Part shown: positions 35,069 to 47,361 of the stretch, one piece after another
Numbering within the stretch: position 1 is the stretch's first letter
How the letters are laid out: each line of letters opens with the position of its first letter
Assembly: GCA_000091205.1 (NCBI GenBank)
Contig: AP006495.2
Origin: Cyanidioschyzon merolae
Taxonomy: Eukaryota
Direction: 5' to 3' (one strand)
Length of the DNA stretch: 64,000 nt
The notes under the pieces: model-generated
Told to the model about the DNA's origin: nothing
What the model saw: the letters and a program-made list of their open reading frames with translations, nothing else
The model's database searches: none
Program-made: the position numbers and the translations under genes

Positions 35069-35437
35069 TCAGCGGATCATCTCCGAGTGCGGAGGAAGCG
35101 AGCGCTCACACAACTCCGGCGGTGGGGGAACGTTGCGCTGGTACGTGCAGCCGCCTGGTAAATACGGTGCGGTGTAGGGCTCTGGGTGCCTCATCTCTAG
35201 CAAGCGACTGAGACCCCGGTTCAACAGGATCTGGGCCTCGCGAGGACCTGCGTTTTTATTGCGCTGAAACTCGGCTTGGATCTCTCGCGATCGCTCCAGC
35301 CACAAGTCAACGTCCACGAACCAGTCGCGCGCTGTCCGCAAAGCGTGACGATAGAGGCGCGTTACTCGCTGCTGGTGGGTCAGCCCCGGGGCGAACGGAG
35401 CTGCCCGCTGAGCTGGCATCGATACCGCGGCACCCAT
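35069..35437 (-). CDS. NDUFB9: NADH dehydrogenase (ubiquinone) 1 beta subcomplex subunit 9 (NDUFB9/B22, LYR family)
   Basis: 122-aa ORF from an ATG. It has the LYR motif RVTRLYRHALRTARDW. HPEPYTAPYLPGGCTYQRNVPPPPELC aligns with the NDUFB9 HPQPYIFPDSPGGTSYERY ... VPEWC segment. Confidence 0.6.
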   Translation of the reverse strand: MGAAVSMPAQRAAPFAPGLTHQQRVTRLYRHALRTARDWFVDVDLWLERSREIQAEFQRNKNAGPREAQILLNRGLSRLLEMRHPEPYTAPYLPGGCTYQRNVPPPPELCERSLPPHSEMIR

Positions 35438-36410: not shown

Positions 36411-38072
36411 CTAACAGTGTGGACGAACCTGCAGCTCGTGCTGGAGCTCCGGCAGCCACCACTCCCGATCTGGATGCATCAGACGCTCCACGACAAAGCT
36501 CCAGTTTCGAGGTTGCGCCCAGCGCTCGCCGAAAAATGCACGCGGCATTGCGTGTCGACTTCGCCTCCACATGGGACGATTTGCCTTGCTAATGCGCTGT
36601 GGAGATGAACGCCCACTCCCAGGGACAGCACTGTTTTCGCCCCGCAGGCAAACATATTCCGGCCAGTACAGCGCGCCCGGAGGCTCGCCGACCGTCCGCA
36701 GTTGCCAAGGCGCCTGAACGAGGCTGCACGGCAAAGGCGCCGCCTCCGGATCGCTGTAATTTGATGGAAACTGCGGTGGTACCAGAACAGTGCTGTGTAC
36801 GGGCATCAGTCGAGCGACAAGCTGCGAGAAAGCGCTGCGAGACCCCACGAAGATATCTGCGCTCGTCATCTCGATCAGGGCGTCAATAGTAGTCATGTCC
36901 AGATGCTGCGTGATCTTGGCACCAGGAAAGCGCTCATACAACCACTGCTTAAGCCGGCTTGGATAACCATCCATGTCCACCAGCGGTGACTCGGAGAAAA
37001 TGCGAATACGAAGGAGGTGCGGAGCGCAAAAGACGGGTCCAGCGCGGTGGCAGTGAGCCTTGAATGCCGCGTCTGCAGCCGCCACATACCATGAATCAGG
37101 GAGGTTTCGTCGCAAGCCAGCTTCCACGTAGGCATTCGGCTTGTACATGGGATACCGCGGAACCTGGTCACCCCGTCGGACGTGAAGTGCGATGCTTACG
37201 GTACGCGAAAGTTCCGCAAAGTCGTCTGCATTCTGGTTTCGACGGCTTTCCATGAAGACTGCTCGCTGGCGCTGGAAGACGCTGCGCCACCACGAGGCCG
37301 TACACGCCCAGGAAGACGCCAACGCTCCACCAGGACTGAAAACAGCCTCGAACTGGAAAAAGAGTGCTCGTGTGCGGAGTGTGGGTTGGCGCTCCACAGC
37401 ACTCCGCCAATGTTGCAGGAGCGCGAGCAGTTCTCGCTCGTCTCTGTGCTTCAGAGTCGATGCAGTGATGCGAATTGCTATATGATCTGATGGGACTGCA
37501 GTTCGTGGCGTTGTGTAAAGCGACAAATTGAAAAACGCTTCAGCTTTGTCGCCGATACCGTGTCCAAGGCCGCGCATCGCCTCTGGGTCGTAGACGTGAC
37601 GCAAACCGAGCCGCTGAGCCAAATGGACGATACGGTTCATGGCGGAGATTGTATGTCCGAGTCCAGCCCTGGAGCAACATCCAGTAAGCGCGATGTAATC
37701 ATCTACGGAGCGCTTACATCCCAGCGGTACTCGAGCGCACCCGTCGAACTGCCTTGGCAATCGCAGGTCAGACGAGACGTTCCGAAAGGCGCGGGGCAGC
37801 CCATGGAGGACGCTCTGTGGCAACAGAAGCAGCAGGAGCCACAGCGACAGTAGCAGGAGTAGCAACTCTGCGACGCGGCGGTGTCTTCCTTGAAAGGAAC
37901 TGAACCAGAGAGCGTGTAGAACAGGTTGCAGGGTGCTTCCGAGGCCGCGGCTGCTGGACAGGTAGCGCCGCATCCGGCGGACCGCCTGTCTCGCGTCAGA
38001 GAGTGCTGTTGAGGTCGTAAGGTGCCGGCTCGTGCCATGGAAAACTGCGAGTTTTGGCCTCAACGCCTGCAT
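36411..38072 (-). CDS. putative type-II membrane glycosyltransferase, fucosyltransferase-like (HVRRGD motif)
   Basis: The track ORF starts at a TTG (about 38132), and the first ATG is at about 38072. It has a poly-Leu signal-anchor (LLLLLLSLWLLLLLL). The catalytic domain has HVRRGDQVPRY (the HxRRGD motif of GT11/GT23/O-FucT fucosyltransferases) and a C-terminal VGSRSAFSQLVARL motif. The exact start is uncertain. Confidence 0.45.
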   Translation of the reverse strand: MQALRPKLAVFHGTSRHLTTSTALSDARQAVRRMRRYLSSSRGLGSTLQPVLHALWFSSFQGRHRRVAELLLLLLSLWLLLLLLPQSVLHGLPRAFRNVSSDLRLPRQFDGCARVPLGCKRSVDDYIALTGCCSRAGLGHTISAMNRIVHLAQRLGLRHVYDPEAMRGLGHGIGDKAEAFFNLSLYTTPRTAVPSDHIAIRITASTLKHRDERELLALLQHWRSAVERQPTLRTRALFFQFEAVFSPGGALASSWACTASWWRSVFQRQRAVFMESRRNQNADDFAELSRTVSIALHVRRGDQVPRYPMYKPNAYVEAGLRRNLPDSWYVAAADAAFKAHCHRAGPVFCAPHLLRIRIFSESPLVDMDGYPSRLKQWLYERFPGAKITQHLDMTTIDALIEMTSADIFVGSRSAFSQLVARLMPVHSTVLVPPQFPSNYSDPEAAPLPCSLVQAPWQLRTVGEPPGALYWPEYVCLRGENSAVPGSGRSSPQRISKANRPMWRRSRHAMPRAFFGERWAQPRNWSFVVERLMHPDREWWLPELQHELQVRPHC

Positions 38073-39099
38073 AAGGCTTTCGTGGCCACCTTGGGACAAG
38101 TGCTCCAAGACATCGACGAACGCTGCGGTCAACGGCGATACGCTTGTTCATCTGTCAGATACTCGGCACTGGGTGCAACGCAATTCGCGTTTGTGCCAGA
38201 ACGATGGCCCGCTGACCGCACCTATCGACAGCAACCAAAGAATAAGTGTTTTATCGATTACTTGCGGGCAAGAAGACTGGTCTATCGGGGGCCGGAACTC
38301 AGAGGACTATGCACACCTGCATGGTGCCGGTTGTGACACGGTTTGCACGACGCAGCGAGAACCTGATTACATGGCTGAATATGATGATTCCAGAAAACTA
38401 GTGGTTTTATTCGAAGCAGGCCGGGCGTTAGGTGTATGTCAGGGCTAAACGCGAGAAACAGCGGTGTGGCTTTGGCCGGAGACCTCGCACCGCTGGGCAG
38501 CATCTGCCAGCGTCCTCCATACCACGAGGTCGGCGAATGCCTCAGCTTGTCCATCTACCAAGGAGCACGCGCGAAACCGATACAATTGTTTGGATACTGT
38601 TGGATTACCGCGTTGAATCAGGGATGCCCGAATACACGTTGTCTATTCGCATTCAGGGAAAGATCCGTACCCGTTAGGGTAGCAGCGTCTAAAAGAATGC
38701 GCACGAACGCGGGCCCGAACGGCACCAGGCGAATCGCTGCACTGTAGCTACCGTTGCACTGAGAAGCACGACTCTAAGCGATAAGGTAGGCATGAGTGGA
38801 TATCCAGGTACTGAGGTCTCTTTCGTGATTCGTTGGAAGCACTTTTGCATCCAAGGGATTCTGGTCATAGACATCGAGATCAATTTTGTGAGACCCTTGC
38901 TGTGATGTATAGCGGACTATCGAAATCACGATGCATTATACCGGATAGCAGGTAAACGTATTATATGTATGTTATTTTGTGTTGAGCAGCTCAAGAAGGC
39001 CGGTATTCCTTCTTGAGGTCAGTCATTACACAGTACTCAGTTGGTTGAGGACTACCAAATGAAACAAATATATGCGCTTCGCGCCAAAAGCCGCTATTG

Positions 39100-39810
39100 T
39101 CAACGTGTGCTTGGAGCTCATGGTACAGAAACAACCGTTAACCACTTTACGGAAACCGCAAGCGGCAGTAGCAGCCGCTAGGAGCGTCTCTGTTTCTCAC
39201 CAGCTTGTTCGTGTGGTCCTGAAAACACTGGGAAACAGTCGGAAAAAATGAGACCTAGTTCACGCACGACCATTTTCCACCGAAATCACAACGACAGCGT
39301 TCTTTCAACATCGCCATCGCATAAAGCACAGGGACATCAGTTCTTTTCAGTCGATGGGAATTCCCTGGGACGAAACGATCGGATCGTATACGAGTATTCG
39401 AGGTATTGGGAGCTCGGTGTATGTACGATCGAACTCGATGAGAACGAGGACCTTATCTATTCTAGAAACAGTGGATTCATTTGGCAGCCTCAGTTTCGCG
39501 CGTAGGGAAGGCGCATACCACAGCATTCACTTTGCCGAATCATCGTGGACTGTTTCTTGACGCCTGGCGACATCCCTCTATTGGAAAAAGTGGCCTTGCA
39601 CCATTCCCCTTTTGTTGGAGCTGTTGCCGATTCTATCGACAAAGAGCTGCTTTTCATTCCTCCATAGTCTGTATGTGTCTCACCGATTGAGGGAGTGCTT
39701 CTCATCGCGAAACGTAATGATCGCTCGACCGAGCGAATTCTTTCATTTAACAAAACATTTGCATTGATCAGGGATTCCAGACTGCGTGAATGGATATTGG
39801 CATTCGGCAA
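39100..39810 (+). mobile_element. degenerate Tc1/mariner-like transposase remnant, copy 2 (inverted relative to copy 1)
   Basis: The plus strand encodes SVSVSHQLVRVVLKTLGNSRKK followed by a stop. It then encodes SIRGIGSSVYVRSNSMRTRTLSILETVDSFGSLSF, matching copy 1 at 15400-16110. The opposite strand gives DYGGMKSSSLSIESATAPT, matching YGAYEGMKSSPSLVESAKAQT in copy 1. The copy also contains a GGGAATTCCC palindrome at 39356. Confidence 0.45.
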
Positions 39811-40492
39811 TGCGTCCGTCTTGATGCACCCTGCCTTCAAGCTCCATAACCCTTCCTTCTTCTCGGATATCGTGGTCGTTACGTATATTCTGTCGTGTGC
39901 TGCGTGACTGCCTTGCTACACCCGCAATAAGAGTTATACCACTGGAGCAGATGCAACGCGGAGACAGAACGTCTGTGCCGTACCACTGAGGCTGTCGGCT
40001 CGAGGCGAGGTTCACTAGTCTCGGAATCGGGCCTCGACATCATTCTGGGGGCCTACAACCCGTACAGACAAGACTACTGCCTGCGGAGGCGCGAAGCGAT
40101 ATCCTACGATACTAGAACGACCAGGTCAACGCTCAGAAGGCGCCTACCTGCTTCGAGTCCCAGAATAAATTGCATTGCGGACAAGCTGCTCAGGTGTCAC
40201 GGCAACAGTAGGCCCGGGGAGAGCTTGAAGTATTAGCCCAGCAGATTCGTAAAGTCCGCGGGACCTGTCGCCTGGAAGGTAAACTTTCGACAATATGGAA
40301 ACCTTTTCCCGCTTTTGACGTTTATCATAGAGGAGGAAAGAAACCATTATCTCGTAGCTACCTAATGGTTCATTTCTCTCTCCCGTGCTAAGCTGCGCGA
40401 TGATCGTGCGCGATACAAGTTGACGAGGCCGCGCTCAACGTCTGCCCAGTGTCGTCGATTGTTGGAAAAAGCGTTCTTTGAACGGGTCCGCT

Positions 40493-40521
40493 GTGTGTGT
40501 GTGTGGGTGTGTGTGGGTGTG
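40493..40521. repeat. (GT)n microsatellite
   Basis: The tract tgtgtgtgtgtgtgggtgtgtgtgggtgt lies upstream of the NDUFS1-like gene. Confidence 0.8.
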
Positions 40522-40962
40522 CTGCCTAGACCCGTGTCTTTGTGACCTGATAAAGCACTGCGTGCAGTGTTGGAAACAGCTCAAGCTCGCTCGGTTCGAA
40601 GGAGCGATAGGCTGTGACTGCTGTGCAATTTCGCGACTCGGGCTACCGGACTGGAGTGAGGCCCAAGTCGACGACCGTGCGTGCGCGCTTTTCGGACAGC
40701 GCAGCTGTTTCGGATTCTCCCAGCGCTCTCGCGTGGTGCTCGGGGTGTCAGTCACCGGCGACGTCGCTCACAAACACGCTCTGATCAGCTGACTCGTCAG
40801 GCACTGCATCAAGGAGAGGCAGTCTCGGTTCTGGAGTCTTGAGTGTCGATTTGCTCCACCTACCTTCGCGGACTGGACGGGAGGCACCGTGCATTGTATA
40901 GCGCGGCACCGAACGATAAGCTGACGTTTCCCTTGAGCAAGATTTGGGTGAGACGGCCAAGC

Positions 40963-42660
40963 ATGCCGGCGCTGGCTCGGACAGTGCTTCGCACGGCGTT
41001 GTCGAAGGTTCTCCACCTGCATCGAGAGCGTCCGCTGCAGCACTGCCGCCGTTTCGGCGCACTAACCTCGAAACCGTACGCGTTTCGTGCTCGACCCTGG
41101 GAACTGAAAAGCACCGAATCGATCGATGTATTCGACGGTGTTGGTTCGAACATTCGCATTGATGCGGTTGGTACGGAAGTCCGTCGTATTTTACCGCGCT
41201 TGAACGAGGAGGTGAATGAAGAGTGGATCAGTGACAAGACGCGTTTCGCCTACGACGGCCTGAAACGGCAGCGCTTGACGGTTCCGATGGTGCGGATACA
41301 CACTGGTGAAGCGAACGAACAACTTGTCGGTGTGGACTGGTACAAAGCAAGGGCTATCCTAGTCAACAAGCTGGTGTCGGCCATTCGGGAGGCCGCCACC
41401 CCAGCAACAACTCAGCGATCTGCGTTCGAGGCCCATGCCATTATCGGGCCCTATGCAGATTGCGAAAGCATAGCAGCGCTACGGCGCATCTTTTACAGCA
41501 TGTTTCCTGAGGGTACCGCTTTTGTCCATGTTCAGGGACACGCGAATACGGGTACACCGCCGACGGACTTTCGCTACGCCTACTGTGCGAATACAACGCT
41601 AGCTGGTTTGGAACACGCCGATGTCATCCTTCTGGTGGCAACGAACCCGCGAGTGGAGGCGCCGCTCCTGAATAATCGTATCCGGAAAGCGGTCTTATTT
41701 GGGAATGCTCGAGTTGGCCTGATCGGCTGCCATGCCGACCTAACGTACAATCGTGAACACCTCTGGCATCTCGGGACCAGTCCCGCAACGCTTCTGCGGA
41801 TCGCCCAAGGTCGTCATGCTTTTTGCTCTGTTTTGGCCAAAGCGCAGCGACCGGCGATTATCGTGAGCCAACAGGCGTTCCAGAGACATGACGGGGCGGC
41901 TATTTTTGGCTGCCTCGCAACGTTGGTGGACCACGTCCCGCGACTTGTGCCCCGGGATGGCTCGTGGAATGGCCTGAACGTACTTCACACTGCCGCGAAT
42001 ACCGTTGGGGCGCTCGACCTTGGCTTTGATCATACGCTGAAAGGAAACCGCTGGATTGATCAGTCCGGGGCGCAACAAACCAGCGAACAGCCCTGGGCGC
42101 GTGCCAAGCTGCTCTATCTGCTGGGTGCCGATGATATCGATGGACTCGAGGAGCTCCCCGAGACCTGCTACGTGGTGTATCAGGGGCATCACGGAGACTA
42201 TGGAGCAAGCATCGCTGACCTGATCCTACCCGGTGCTGCGTATACCGAGAAGAACGGCACGTTTGTGAACACAGAGGGTCGTGTCCAGCGCACGGCACGC
42301 GCGTTCCTGCCTCCTGGCCAGGCCAAAGTCGACGCGGAAATTCTCGATGAGCTCTTGGTAGGTCTGGATCACGCTGCCGGATTTTTCGATGCAGCACAGG
42401 AAATGGAATTCCTGGCTCCTCATCTGGGTGTCCAGTATGGTTTACAGGAACCGGATCTCATTAGAACACCAAACACGGGACAGGTGCAGCTAGGCGGTGC
42501 GAAAGCAGAGCGCGCTCGTTCGTTGCCGCTGTCACCCATGCCGTTTGGACCGGTTATTGAGAATTTTTACATGACAGATCCGATTACCAGAGCGAGTGCT
42601 ACGATGGCGAAATGCGTGCGTGTTGCTCGCTATAGTAATTTTGAGGAATCCAGTTCGTAA
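40963..42660 (+). CDS. NADH-ubiquinone oxidoreductase 75-kDa subunit (NDUFS1/Nad11), C-terminal molybdopterin-oxidoreductase-like domain only, with presequence
   Basis: The track ORF begins at a GTG (40843), and the first ATG at 40963 gives MPALARTVLRTALSKVLHLHRERPLQHCRRF (Arg-rich and amphipathic, like a mitochondrial presequence). From GALTSKPYAFRARPWELKSTESIDVFDGVGSNIRIDAVGTEVRRILPRLNEEVNEEWISDKTRFAYDGLKRQRLTVPMV onward it aligns collinearly with human NDUFS1 residues ~240-727. Further matches include LLVATNPRVEAPLLNNRIRK, YQGHHGDYGASIADLILPGAAYTEKNGTFVNTEGRVQRT and FYMTDPITRASATMAKCV. No Fe-S cluster domain is encoded upstream in any frame. Confidence 0.75.
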   Translation: MPALARTVLRTALSKVLHLHRERPLQHCRRFGALTSKPYAFRARPWELKSTESIDVFDGVGSNIRIDAVGTEVRRILPRLNEEVNEEWISDKTRFAYDGLKRQRLTVPMVRIHTGEANEQLVGVDWYKARAILVNKLVSAIREAATPATTQRSAFEAHAIIGPYADCESIAALRRIFYSMFPEGTAFVHVQGHANTGTPPTDFRYAYCANTTLAGLEHADVILLVATNPRVEAPLLNNRIRKAVLFGNARVGLIGCHADLTYNREHLWHLGTSPATLLRIAQGRHAFCSVLAKAQRPAIIVSQQAFQRHDGAAIFGCLATLVDHVPRLVPRDGSWNGLNVLHTAANTVGALDLGFDHTLKGNRWIDQSGAQQTSEQPWARAKLLYLLGADDIDGLEELPETCYVVYQGHHGDYGASIADLILPGAAYTEKNGTFVNTEGRVQRTARAFLPPGQAKVDAEILDELLVGLDHAAGFFDAAQEMEFLAPHLGVQYGLQEPDLIRTPNTGQVQLGGAKAERARSLPLSPMPFGPVIENFYMTDPITRASATMAKCVRVARYSNFEESSS

Positions 42661-44930
42661 ATGCCTTTGCTCAGAGCATGACCCTAGAGTGGAGTGGGAT
42701 ACCAGTAGCAACAGCAGCAACGGCAGCAGCAACTGAAGCAGGTTTTGCGCGGGTCGTGCGCTGGTGAGCGGTTGCCCTTGCGACGACGGAACCTATGATT
42801 GCTGAACAGAGGCCCCTGGTGATACGCACACGCTTTCAACAAGAATAGCTATGCCCAGTGCTTTCCTCTTAAAGAACAGCAAGCAGCTACCGCACCCGCC
42901 GTGTAGTCCCTTAAATGATGAAAACTGTACGACTAGAGGAGCAGAAATTACCGGCTTGCGTGTAGACGAAGGTTCGTCTTGGAACGAATCAGAGCCAAGC
43001 GGCAACACAAACCCATCCACGCGTACACACACATGAACCGCCTGCACGTGTACACGCCTATCCCCAGTCCCGCAGCATCCTATGGGATATGCGCTGTTTT
43101 CATTGTGCACGAGTTGCGTATGACTCATCCGCCACGGCAAGATAAACATGAAGCAGCCATGCAAGTGCTGGTTGCAATCAATCACAAAGCTTCACACTTG
43201 GAAATGTGAATTCTCGAATGCCTGTACCAAACTGCGTTTTTCGTTTTCGTCTGTCTGTCTCGCAGGAGTCCAACAATGCGATACATGCTGCGGAGAGGCG
43301 ACAGGTCGCGAACGTAGTTTGTGCTGCAACCGCTAGCTTGCGTAAATTGCCCTGTCTGTACAAGTCCGTCATGCTATGGTAAGCAGGTGGATGAAGTGAC
43401 CGCTTTTCTCGTCGTGCTTATGCTGGACGTCGTGCTCCCAAAACAGACCCTGTCAAACGCTGGCTACTGGAGTGTGTTGTCACCATTCCATACCACTCGT
43501 TACGTTCGCTAACAAATACTATCAAAGAAGCTGCAGGATGTGAAGGTTCCGCACCGTTGAATCAGAAGGTGATGGAGAGAAGCGATTCGACAAAGAGGAC
43601 TGCAGTGTTCCAGGGGAGACCATCACGCGATCGACAAGACACCATCGATGACGTATAGACATGCGAACGCTTCTCCCAGGAGAGGCAGATGTACGTCTTT
43701 CTTTATGGGAATTCATTTGGGCGAAATCTTACACCTGTATTCTGCGCGCAATTTGAGATGGGGTAACCGCTGTTCGCAGTGTGGAAACGAGCCAGAATGA
43801 AGACAAAATCAGATCTAGCCGCGATGCTACTGTGTGGTCGTCTGCAGATCGCCAAACGGAGAGCGACATCAACCAGCACATCTTTCGTCGAAGCATTGTA
43901 CGGCTTCTGCGTGCCCCAATGCTCTGCCTTGTTCGCAGATAAGGTCGTTTTACATCACTCGACAGCGGCGCGGCAGAGCGCAGCTGAGCTTGGCATCGAG
44001 CTGTGCTGTGCGTTCCGGCTGCTTCTCCTTTGTTCCATCGAGTCGAGGATGTGTTCTCTGTTGTAAACCGCTATTTCAGCACTCACAGATCTATCGACGA
44101 GTCGTTCGCATCCGTGTCATAAATATGGTTCCAGTAGTCGTTCGTTTCTACGTTCACCGGCCCGGAACATCTCCGTTGCGTCTCTGCTCTTGCGCGGGAG
44201 GGAACGGAAGGACCCGCCTCAGCTCCTAGGCATGCTCGCGACGGAGATGCTGACAACGAGGTTCTCACGGAATCGGGTATACACAGACAGAGAAAATGCG
44301 AAATGCAGTGCCCCCGTCGGCCGAGTGCGTCTCCGTCCCCTGGGAAAATGGGTACGGAGTACGGCAACCATTTCCATGCCACCCCGACATGCGATCGAAA
44401 ACCAGAAGAAATCAACTGACGAAGAAGAGTGAAATGCTCGTGGAAATAGGACGCAGAGTGACAGGAACGAAACCGTGACCGACCAGAGAGATCTGTCTGA
44501 AACCGATGTCGAGGCCTCTCAACTGGAACATATCTATGGGGAGAATACCCCAAAATATGTGATGCAGGATGCCATGAGGGATCGTGTAGCATCCTACTCG
44601 AGGAAGGCTGGCGTAGCTTCTCTCGCGTTGACGCACCTCGTCTAGGAATTGTTCGTTCGAGTTCCGGAATCAGGGATACCCACTGTCCGCATCCCTCTGG
44701 AGTGTATCGAGCAAACCTCAGAGCGACCACACAGCTGACGCTGGGATCAGGTGATACGATACCGCTCGCTGGAACGATTCGAAGTTTGCACACGCACGAG
44801 CCCGTGTCGAGTGCACAACGTCCCGAGCCGACGCCCCCAGAGGTATGGCAAAGCCGTTCAGTCACGATGATGCATCCGCTCCAGTAGTTTCGGCACCAAG
44901 TCGGGTGCCCACGACAGGCACTCGTCGCAC

Positions 44931-45105
44931 GAGAGAAAATACGAAACGACCATAACATCCGAGAAGAAGTATGGGTAATGGAACTTGGAGGTAGGCGCTT
45001 CATGATGGACGCTTTCTCGAAAGCCATTATCGATCCCGAGTGCTGGGATCCATGGTCAATGGAAACGTTTTGTCATCCGGAAAAAAATTTGCGCAGCATC
45101 GCGCT
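44931..45105. repeat. dispersed repeat, copy A (~175 bp)
   Basis: The sequence gagagaaaatacgaaacgaccataacatccgagaagaagtatgggtaatggaacttggaggtaggcg ... aacgttttgtcatccggaaaaaaa matches copy B at 49461-49650 at roughly 80% identity in the same orientation. Confidence 0.6.
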
Positions 45106-45280: not shown

Positions 45281-46255
45281 ATGGTGCCGTGTCCTTTCGC
45301 TCAGCGTTTGACTGAACAATCCTCGTTGGGTGAATTGAACACCCCTGGAGAAGCCGAGGCCGAGAACGACCCAAGTCGACGGCCCCAGTGCCCATTTCAA
45401 CGGTCTGTCGAGAGCGGCACGGAAGCGCCGAGCCGCAGCGGTGACCAATGGACACACGCTCGCTCTGAAAGCATCCTGTGCCCGCTGTGTCATACACCGC
45501 CGGTGCCGCGCGCTGGCGGCTACGCCCTAGCACTGCCGTGCACACACGTGTACTGCGGCGCGTGCGCAGCGAACGGTGTACGCGACTGTCTACTCTGTGG
45601 GTGTACGGTCTCGGGGTTTGTGCAAGGCTCCGAGTACGTGAAGGAAGACGCACTGTTCGAGGATATTCGCCAGACGGCCGCAAAGTATTTGACGCTGAAC
45701 GCAGCTCAGCTATGCGTGCAGCTCGGTGTCAAGCGCCGAGAACCGTTCCTGCTTGAAACCGCTATTCGAACGTATGCACGTGAGCTTGAGTGGAGTGAGC
45801 AGAAAGAGGCCCTGACTCAATTGCAGGCTGAAGCAGTTTCTCCGGTTGCGTCAGCGACGTGCCCGTCGATTGCAGAGGGTTCCGCGTCAGAAGATGTTGT
45901 CGCGAACAACGGACCGTCCATGGAGCTTGCGGAAGACGCATGGCTAACAATGCCGAAACTGCGTGCGCGAGTACTCTACGCTGTGGCGTGTGGGATCCTC
46001 GCGGAAATGAAGCTTTCTGCCGACTGGTCGTCCCTGGAGCTTGCAACACGTTCCGATACTGTTCGAGAAGCATATCACTACGCAAAAACCTCAGTCGATG
46101 TTCTTCTTGGTCTAGATCGGTTGGGCTCACCATTCATTGAACAGGCTTTAGAGCAGAGTCTCATGCGTTTGGAATGGGCAGCGCGCGTGCTCAGAAACTT
46201 GCGATCATCGACTACGCGCGCAGACAAACTGCACCTGTCGACTGAAGCGGCTTAG
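45281..46255 (+). CDS. RING-finger (C3HC4-type) protein
   Basis: 324-aa ORF from an ATG. It has the RING signature CPLCHTPPVPRAGGYALALPCTHVYCGACAANGVRDCLLCGC. The rest is not assignable. Confidence 0.45.
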   Translation: MVPCPFAQRLTEQSSLGELNTPGEAEAENDPSRRPQCPFQRSVESGTEAPSRSGDQWTHARSESILCPLCHTPPVPRAGGYALALPCTHVYCGACAANGVRDCLLCGCTVSGFVQGSEYVKEDALFEDIRQTAAKYLTLNAAQLCVQLGVKRREPFLLETAIRTYARELEWSEQKEALTQLQAEAVSPVASATCPSIAEGSASEDVVANNGPSMELAEDAWLTMPKLRARVLYAVACGILAEMKLSADWSSLELATRSDTVREAYHYAKTSVDVLLGLDRLGSPFIEQALEQSLMRLEWAARVLRNLRSSTTRADKLHLSTEAA

Positions 46256-47361
46256 CCGGGCACCAGCCTCGCCAGGTTGCCAGCGGTGCGGCTTGCTGCC
46301 CGCTTGGCATGCAGAACGGGAACATTCTCAGTGGAGACGGCCTTGAGTGGGTGCGTACCTGGCTCGGAAGCACCGGCCAGCGCTATTGCATCGATGTCAG
46401 CGACAGCCGGTGACGCGGGTGATAGGCTCCTGTGGTGTGTCGATGACCGAGCGCCCTGTGCACCCTTTTCTGGTGTTGAGAATTCGGACAGCGCATCATG
46501 CACAGCGGGCGTGCAAGTTCTGGGATCATTTCGTTTGGCACGTTCCCGTTGAGCACAGGAGGCCGGGTCCTCGCGAGGGCACTCCGCCACAGCAGCGGCA
46601 GCTGCACCGCCACCGCTCAGGGCCAGCTGCCGGAGAGCAGCGAGCGTCTGGCGCCAGGACGCTGCAGGGCCCGCCACAGGCGATTCGTTGACTGCAGGTT
46701 CATCGCTTTGCGGCTGTGGAATAGCGCGGTTCGGAGAGTACGCCCAACTGGCAGCCGCAAGCAAGTCTGCGGTGGACGGCGACTTTGCAGCCGCACCGCT
46801 GCCCATGGATGCGGGAGCGTTTCGGGATTGGCGACTCGAGACGCGCACAGGCGATAGCACTAGGCTACTTCCTAGAAGCCGTCTTTGGGCCGGTGATGCA
46901 CGGACAGGGGTTAGCGTGACGCGGGACCCGTACATTGCCGCCGGTTTCATGGAGTCCTGTCGAGTCTTTTCTGGGGCGCGGGCTTCGTTTCCGGCGTTGG
47001 TGCCGATGGTCGCTGAAGTATGGCCAGTTTGTGGCAGTTCGTCGGTGCCGTCAACTCCGAACTCAAGTCTCCGTGGCTGCTGGAAAGCGTCCAGCTCGAG
47101 CTGACGACGCCGTCCGCGGTACAGAAATTGCTCGCCTTCCACAAGAGTTCGATGAAGTGCGGTGTGGCGGCGAGATCGGCTGCGACGGTCCAGCGGAGGC
47201 GCCGTCATCACCAGGGCAGTGTCCGTAGAGGATCTGTCGCAGATGCGACTCGCTCCACGCCGCTCGCTTGTCAACGGCGTCGACGGTAGCTCGAGCACTG
47301 GTACCGTCGACAGGCCTGCGGGCCGATGCAGCGACCTACTTGGCGAACACATGGAAATCAA
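46252..47361 (-). CDS. hypothetical low-complexity (Ala/Ser/Pro/Arg-rich) protein
   Basis: 369-aa ORF convergent with the RING gene and overlapping it by 4 nt. It is compositionally biased and may be a GC-driven spurious ORF. Confidence 0.2.
   Translation of the reverse strand: MISMCSPSRSLHRPAGLSTVPVLELPSTPLTSERRGASRICDRSSTDTALVMTAPPLDRRSRSRRHTALHRTLVEGEQFLYRGRRRQLELDAFQQPRRLEFGVDGTDELPQTGHTSATIGTNAGNEARAPEKTRQDSMKPAAMYGSRVTLTPVRASPAQRRLLGSSLVLSPVRVSSRQSRNAPASMGSGAAAKSPSTADLLAAASWAYSPNRAIPQPQSDEPAVNESPVAGPAASWRQTLAALRQLALSGGGAAAAAVAECPREDPASCAQRERAKRNDPRTCTPAVHDALSEFSTPEKGAQGARSSTHHRSLSPASPAVADIDAIALAGASEPGTHPLKAVSTENVPVLHAKRAASRTAGNLARLVPG

Follow-up and report, generated by a model that had tools for sequence, protein, structure and literature searches.

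Of the complex I core subunits, NDUFS1 (Nad11, NuoG), the 75-kDa subunit, is the largest, and it holds three clusters of the electron wire. In stramenopiles, at least four splits of the nad11 gene have occurred at "the equivalent position", and one or both parts still reside in the mitochondrial DNA (mtDNA) (PMC4824035; PMC6723347; PMC7194472). The lineages concerned are brown algae together with the PX clade, eustigmatophytes, some diatoms, bicosoecids and labyrinthulids (Sevcikova et al. 2016, PMC4824035). In Euglena gracilis, the complex I structure (PDB 8iuf) contains NDUFS1A and NDUFS1B as separate chains that were called nuclear-encoded (He et al. 2024, PMC10884005), and a split hydrophilic core subunit in eukaryotic complex I was described in that report as previously unreported. 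A more distant parallel is the cox2a/cox2b pair of chlorophycean algae and Myzozoa, which, as cited in PMC4824035, is split at a domain boundary with both pieces in the nucleus, each with an import signal. However, the split of Cox2, a membrane protein, is usually explained by the hydrophobicity of that protein, whereas NDUFS1 is a hydrophilic subunit of a different complex. Here we analyzed a stretch of 64,000 nucleotides (the window) of contig AP006495.2 from Cyanidioschyzon merolae (assembly GCA_000091205.1), in which the gene at 40963..42660 encodes the C-terminal half of NDUFS1 only. This gene is very probably the C-half of an NDUFS1 specified by two genes, both of them nuclear. The genes and the phenomenon as such are known, and both C. 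merolae gene models have been public since the genome was annotated, but the occurrence and form of the split in Rhodophyta appear to be undescribed. We found no description of a red-algal NDUFS1/nad11 split in a literature search that left most subscription journals outside its reach (e.g., complex I surveys in BBA).

The gene lies in a single long, intact and intron-less plus-strand open reading frame (ORF), 40843..42660, whose first ATG is at 40963. Its features are as follows.

40840..40842, plus strand: in-frame TGA read from the sequence, 41 codons 5' of the ATG, closing the reading frame
40963..42660, plus strand: complete coding sequence (CDS) of the NDUFS1/Nad11 C-half, 565 residues and stop, equal to C. 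merolae BAM80927.1
40963..41055, plus strand: putative mitochondrial presequence of 31 residues, judged by composition; it ends in RRF directly before G32
41056..41085, plus strand: junction peptide GALTSKPYAF, the first conserved residues, invariant in 48 of 48 truncated orthologues
41104..41256, plus strand: Fer4_NDSU1 subdomain with a vestigial N7 site (Pfam PF22151, E=2e-27, ORF residues 88-138)
41272..42354, plus strand: molybdopterin-oxidoreductase-like domain (Pfam PF00384, E=1.8e-79)
42475..42615, plus strand: NADH_dhqG_C, a C-terminal motif specific to complex I subunit G (PF09326, E=1.1e-14)

The product begins with MPALARTVLRTALSKVLHLHRERPLQHCRRF, followed by GALTSKPYAF, and its whole length shows 100% identity to BAM80927.1 (XP_005536963.1; UniProt M1VDN6), annotated as "NADH dehydrogenase I iron-sulfur protein 75kDa subunit" of C. 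merolae 10D. All named nearest relatives of the protein are red algae, and the G+C content of about 57% and the intron-less genes fit a reading of the window as red-algal nuclear DNA. A preliminary description of this DNA, made from the letters alone, had seen in the truncated gene a hint of a stramenopile lineage; the identity to a red-algal protein disproves this.

To define which part of NDUFS1 is encoded, the domain content was compared with that of canonical proteins. The three Pfam families exceeded their gathering cut-offs (94.9 bits against 23.8 for Fer4_NDSU1, 267.8 against 24 for Molybdopterin and 55.2 against 25 for NADH_dhqG_C), and they occur in the same order in the canonical single-chain NDUFS1/NUAM/NuoG of mouse (6g2j_G), Arabidopsis (7a23_C) and Paracoccus (8qby_G). 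The Pfam search found no Fer2_4, NADH-G_4Fe-4S_3 or Fer4_Nqo3 in the 565 residues. The label of Fer4_NDSU1, "4Fe-4S domain", does not contradict a reading free of iron-sulfur (Fe-S) clusters, because this stretch of the C-half contains no cysteine, like that of other mitochondrial NDUFS1 proteins, in which cluster N7 is missing. With phmmer against the PDB, residues 31-555 aligned in one piece to residues 228-714 of mouse NDUFS1 (E~1e-113), and bovine, ovine, human, plant, ciliate, yeast and Paracoccus subunits matched equally well. Identity to animal and fungal NDUFS1 was 44-47% over the whole length of the C-domain. An AlphaFold2 model of the C-half alone had a core of high pLDDT and a TMq of 0.71-0.73 to NDUFS1 chains. 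Pfam and phmmer therefore agree with the preliminary description that only the C-terminal domain is encoded, up to its C-terminus. The start of the match, however, had been placed at about residue 240 and is in fact at about residue 228 of the (mouse) precursor. It lies two residues past the Cys of CPVGALT, the last invariant Cys of the Fe-S domain in alignments of N-halves, which we take to be the fourth ligand of cluster N4; the match does begin beyond all Fe-S ligands, as had been stated. Compared with the canonical chain, the N-terminal 230 residues or so, with clusters N1b, N5 and N4, are missing and a leader stands in their place. Nor does the missing domain lie nearby: when the Fe-S domain of a full-length homologue was searched against all six frames of the window by tblastn, the best match had E=0.88, so that what had been noted for the immediate upstream region holds for the whole 64 kb. 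The window gene is the cofactor-less, molybdopterin-like C-terminal half of the 75-kDa complex I core subunit, and not a canonical member of the family, the N1b/N5/N4 domain being in another polypeptide.

That polypeptide came from a search of 1.84 billion cluster representatives in which a fungal homologue's Fe-S domain served as query. It is a protein of 278 residues (P0216 in our set), identical to C. merolae BAM82506.1 (XP_005538542.1; M1UWD3), and it too bears the name "75kDa subunit". Its Pfam content is Fer2_4, NADH-G_4Fe-4S_3 and Fer4_Nqo3 with no other family; about 70 residues extend it at the N-terminus, and its C-terminus reads ...DLCPVGALTRKRYEH. All 12 ligands are invariant in the N-halves, namely four Cys for N1b, one His and three Cys for N5, and four Cys for N4. 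The N-half locus was read from a genomic contig of a variant strain, 99.6% identical, in which a stop codon follows ...CPVGALTRKRYEH and no similarity to the C-half was found 3' of this stop. A BLAST extension beyond the stop (…EH*KRIW against …AFTARPW) was judged to be chance. One other candidate, P0276 (415 residues, from an SRC read assembly), owed a spuriously high N-half score to a tandemly duplicated NuoG Fe-S segment and was discarded as a chimeric soil read assembly. The two C. merolae halves lie on different chromosome-sized contigs, since the longest contigs that carry them are 1,253,087 bp for BAM82506.1 and 866,983 bp for the window protein. In addition, nad11 is absent from rhodophyte mitochondrial genomes (PMC4226036; see also PMC7194472). 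Given this absence and the 1.25-Mb contig, the N-half is a nuclear gene and not a truncated mitochondrial nad11. The preliminary description had thus rightly anticipated a core subunit specified as two polypeptides, but had sought the partner in the wrong genome.

We then examined how far this arrangement extends. The 49 best database matches of the C-half were all 514-586 residues long, except one partial sequence, and had the same three domains without any Fe-S domain. All 49 ranked above the first full-length protein; full-length fungal, animal and alphaproteobacterial proteins appeared only from rank 50, with 43-48% identity. In each of the 48 complete or near-complete truncated sequences, among them transcriptome ORFs marked complete, the conserved region starts at GALTSKPYAF. 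The named relatives are Cyanidiococcus, Cyanidium, four Galdieria species, Hildenbrandia, Agarophyton, Porphyridium and Bangiopsis, with Porphyra ranked lower; identity was 83% to Cyanidiococcus and about 50% to florideophytes. Conversely, a search with P0216 recovered N-half-only proteins of 241-349 residues from Cyanidiococcus, Porphyridium, Timspurckia, Rhodosorus, Pyropia, Agarophyton, Gracilariopsis, Gracilaria and Bangiopsis/Purpureofilum. Five species (C. merolae, Cyanidiococcus, Porphyridium, Agarophyton and Bangiopsis) yielded the two halves as separate proteins; one half or the other came from Cyanidium, the four Galdieria species, Hildenbrandia, Porphyra, Pyropia, Rhodosorus, Timspurckia, Gracilaria and Gracilariopsis. 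No full-length red-algal NDUFS1, which the preliminary description had considered as an objection, was found among the best matches to either half, where it should have surfaced because it would outrank the non-red matches. In a neighbor-joining (NJ) tree of the C-domain, the 48 truncated sequences separated from 68 full-length ones in 100 of 100 bootstraps, which is consistent with a single origin of the truncated red-algal C-halves. The red-algal N-halves were monophyletic in 174 of 200 bootstraps of an Fe-S-domain NJ tree, inside the mitochondrial/alphaproteobacterial clade. Judged from these sequences, the 75-kDa subunit is apparently made from two unlinked nuclear genes across all red algae.

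The red-algal pair resembles the known splits in part. As in stramenopiles, the break falls between the Fe-S N-terminal and the molybdopterin-like C-terminal domain, a likeness at the level of the described position and not of a residue alignment; the subunit has been inferred to consist of two polypeptides in both groups, and in brown algae, too, the C-half is nuclear, there with a predicted transit peptide (PMC4824035). In contrast, at least one half remains in stramenopile mtDNA (both in some diatoms), whereas both are nuclear in red algae, whose mtDNA lacks nad11. The red-algal split would be independent of the stramenopile one, since red N-halves and red C-halves each form a clade of their own. 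In Euglena, a two-chain NDUFS1 has been seen by cryo-electron microscopy to assemble in a working complex I. The Euglena break is also placed differently. NDUFS1A (385 residues) spans the Fer4_NDSU1 region and breaks off inside the β-sheet of subdomain II, and its residues 250-333 (8iuf_1A) align with residues 30-107 of the C-half, so that it holds the start of what is the C-half in red algae. The red-algal break, directly past the last N4 ligand, comes about 100 residues earlier, and the red-algal C-half is far closer to animal NDUFS1 (at the E-value given above) than to the Euglena chains.

As shown in the feature list, the C-half carries a leader in place of the Fe-S domain. The 31 residues in C. 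merolae comprise six Arg, one Lys, three His and one Glu but no Asp. Leaders of the red-algal orthologues range from 21 to 91 residues and are unrelated in sequence; compared with the mature parts they are rich in Arg (11% against 7%), Ser (12% against 6%) and Ala (16% against 9.5%) and poor in Asp plus Glu (4% against 12%), and Arg stands at position -3 relative to the junction Gly in 35 of 45. Presequences cleaved by the mitochondrial processing peptidase (MPP) are expected to show this pattern: an unconserved sequence with much Arg, Ser and Ala, few acidic residues and an Arg at -2 or -3. From composition and Arg at -3, the leader likely targets the C-half to mitochondria. Cys29 of the leader (HCRRF-GALT) was also considered as a relic fourth N4 ligand supplied by the C-half; we rejected this, as the Cys is unconserved in other red algae and CPVG is invariant in the N-halves.

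Taken together, these findings suggest the following route to a working subunit, in which we infer import, processing and assembly. Each precursor would be imported separately by means of its own N-terminal presequence. The leader of the C-half would probably be cleaved directly before Gly32, with Arg at -3, and Fe-S clusters would be inserted into the N-half. The mature polypeptides would then join within the N-module of the peripheral arm, without a covalent bond, and restore the canonical NDUFS1 fold, as NDUFS1A and NDUFS1B do in Euglena. In this arrangement, the 278-residue N-half, with its N1b, N5 and N4 ligands, would serve the electron wire, and the 565-residue C-half would supply the structural scaffold.

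The junction between the halves bears on how the split arose. The N-halves run on past the last Cys as CPVGAxTxKx(Y/F)xF, with L, F, I or V in the position after GA; in 62 sequences there is no variation at G269 and T272, and conservation at A270, K274, Y276 and F278 is at least 90%. The C-halves, for their part, carry a relic (I/L)-R-(A/P)-V before GALTSKPYAF, in which the ancestral L-C-P-V can be recognized with Arg in place of Cys. Both genes therefore contain about 14 ancestral residues, as the overlapping junction peptide CPVGALTSKPYAF; the Pfam family Fer4_Nqo3 ends at GALT. Because of this overlap, the sequences suggest that two overlapping gene copies once coexisted and then lost complementary parts. 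They could have arisen by duplication in the nucleus or by piecewise transfer from a mitochondrial nad11. A more far-reaching interpretation is that this undescribed, phylum-old, nuclear-nuclear split left in both halves a selectively maintained CPVGALTSKPYAF of about 10-14 residues, which would imply a docking unlike that of a canonical chain that was simply cut. One copy of the junction might then, for example, occupy the canonical linker position and the other might have taken on a new role at the N4 cluster or at the interface between the halves. We put this forward tentatively, as a possibility that we rather doubt.

Several points speak against this explanation of the gene as half of a two-chain NDUFS1. 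The junction peptide is conserved in both halves, yet it occurs once in canonical NDUFS1. AlphaFold models of each half alone had a confidence below 50 at both junction segments and over residues 1-41 of the C-half, and the N-half model was poor around N4; with their junctions at such confidence, models of the isolated halves are uninformative on docking. The presence of either polypeptide in red-algal complex I is argued from sequence. The hydrophobic moment of the C. merolae leader is no higher than that of shuffled versions (455 of 2000 reach it). The mitochondrial targeting peptide proposed in the preliminary description is accordingly likely from the presequence-like composition and the conserved Arg at -3, and not from the hydrophobic moment. 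Finally, the transcript ends used below probably are such, although the library behind them may have been RNA or DNA.

Among the other explanations, the one that survives best would place the C-half outside complex I, as a relic or a neofunctionalized paralogue, with the Fe-S half alone or another protein acting as NDUFS1. In its favor, the C-domain of mitochondrial NDUFS1 holds no cofactor, so that the electron wire needs the N-half only, and our assignment of the C-half to complex I comes from comparison of sequence and predicted fold. We nevertheless consider this improbable, given the strong conservation throughout the phylum (the invariant junction, NADH_dhqG_C and the identity to animal and fungal NDUFS1 noted above), the lack of a second C-domain gene that could replace it, and the fact that the C-domain is integral to the N-module in all solved complex I structures.

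It is still less likely that the window holds a conventional full-length NDUFS1 whose Fe-S domain is joined to the C-half by a missed upstream exon, in cis, or by trans-splicing. Gene models can indeed miss 5' exons, and the 2.8 kb upstream of the gene are without long ORFs. However, similarity to the Fe-S domain is absent from every frame of the 64 kb, so that the upstream Fe-S exon which the preliminary description had raised against its own reading was not found. An in-frame stop precedes the ATG of the C-half, the Fe-S half ends in a stop and tail of its own, and the C-half begins with its own ATG and leader. Truncation of this kind is seen again in 48 orthologues, among them the complete transcriptome ORFs, and a spliced product would duplicate the junction, given the overlap of about 14 residues. 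In Galdieria, the C-half gene is intron-less and a divergently oriented neighbor ends 26 bp before its ATG, which leaves no room for an upstream exon; no Fe-S-domain gene was found within ±10 kb of it. A transcript-like contig in C. merolae also bears on this point. The public short-read contig L006, 99.6% identical to the window, is colinear with 40510-43119 by BLAST, and direct reading extends the match to 40476. There, 487 nt 5' of the C-half ATG, an Illumina adapter (contig positions 1-22) is fused to the genomic sequence. The same adapter, CAGACGTGTGCTCTTCCGATCT, heads the Logan contigs of both halves (L006, L008 and L009) and is fused straight to genomic sequence in each; in L008 and L009 of the N-half it occupies positions 1-23 and the fusion lies about 49 nt 5' of the N-half ATG. 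The contigs look like 5' ends from RNA sequencing; the fusions probably mark the starts of transcripts and as such would exclude a spliced upstream exon. This gives one further feature.

40476..40962, plus strand: probable 5' untranslated region, from the short-read contig with the adapter fused to 40476 and colinear to 43119

The adapter itself is a contamination of these Logan assemblies.

A stramenopile-type arrangement, with the Fe-S domain in a truncated mitochondrial nad11 and only the C-terminal domain in the nucleus, would share with our gene the break at the domain boundary where stramenopile nad11 is split and the presequence-like leader known from the nuclear C-half of Ectocarpus (PMC4824035), but is likewise highly unlikely, as the organism is the red alga C. 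merolae, no nad11 occurs in rhodophyte mtDNAs (PMC4226036) and the Fe-S half, extended by about 70 residues at its N-terminus, is encoded in the nucleus on a 1.25-Mb contig.

The two-gene NDUFS1 of red algae may have counterparts in further lineages. N-half-only proteins with N-terminal extensions were found in the glaucophytes Gloeochaete wittrockiana (P0325) and Cyanophora paradoxa (P0361), and they end at the same junction, CPVGALTxKEYxF. Glaucophyte mtDNAs carry nad11 (PMC4224345). This suggests a nuclear N-half combined with a mitochondrial C-half, as in eustigmatophytes, an arrangement that we did not find described for glaucophytes in the literature. In the NJ tree of the Fe-S domain, the glaucophytes grouped in 199 of 200 bootstraps, and a clade of red algae plus glaucophytes appeared in only 12 of 200; the fissions of the two groups may be shared or separate. 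ORFs of 236-325 residues with the Fe-S half only were also present in transcriptomes of Phalansterium, Cavostelium, Protostelium and Thecamoeba (P0421, P0422, P0424 and P0450), several of them with N-terminal extensions, and further ones in P0130 and dozens of JGI environmental contigs of about 1 kb. Fission at this boundary, in ORFs that are either nuclear or mitochondrial, may thus be much wider than the stramenopile literature indicates, and the boundary between the Fe-S and molybdopterin-like domains looks like a recurrent fission site. If the glaucophyte and amoebozoan N-halves are true splits, it would be a eukaryote-wide hotspot and a possible marker of rare genomic changes.

Red algae would add a whole phylum in which a pair of nuclear genes specifies NDUFS1, with the cut precisely at the border of its two evolutionary modules. 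Being genetically tractable, C. merolae would offer a natural system for import, Fe-S loading and docking of the hydrogenase-like and molybdopterin-like modules, for the question why this boundary is repeatedly chosen, and for what the cofactor-less C-domain does. The shared database name "75 kDa subunit" for both products can also mislead analyses of orthology and completeness.

Between the two strains, the C-half CDS differs at two of 1698 nt, both synonymous, and the flanks at eight of 912 nt. Upstream of the CDS, the (GT)n tract mentioned in the preliminary description is real, and we infer no function from it.

40492..40521, no strand assigned: (TG)n microsatellite, read from the sequence

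The approximately 2.8 kb 5' of the gene (38133..40962) contain no ORF above about 130 residues, and the G+C fraction is 0.50 at 38-40 kb compared with about 0.57 elsewhere in the window. Scans of the window for tRNAs and Rfam families were both empty, this region included. Farther upstream, 35069..35437 on the minus strand encodes a 122-residue LYR-motif protein that matches the complex I accessory subunit NDUFB9/B22 (PDB matches to E=1e-15; Pfam Complex1_LYR). Only 5.5 kb separate it from the C-half gene, in a genome of roughly 16 Mb, and the closeness of the two complex I genes may be a coincidence. Four flanking long ORFs, 36411..38132 (minus), 44083..45027 (minus), 45281..46255 (plus) and 46252..47361 (minus), match no Pfam family at E<=0.001. 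The same four were called on hot-spring metagenome contigs that bear an identical NDUFS1 C-half, and they are for this reason probably real, lineage-specific genes.

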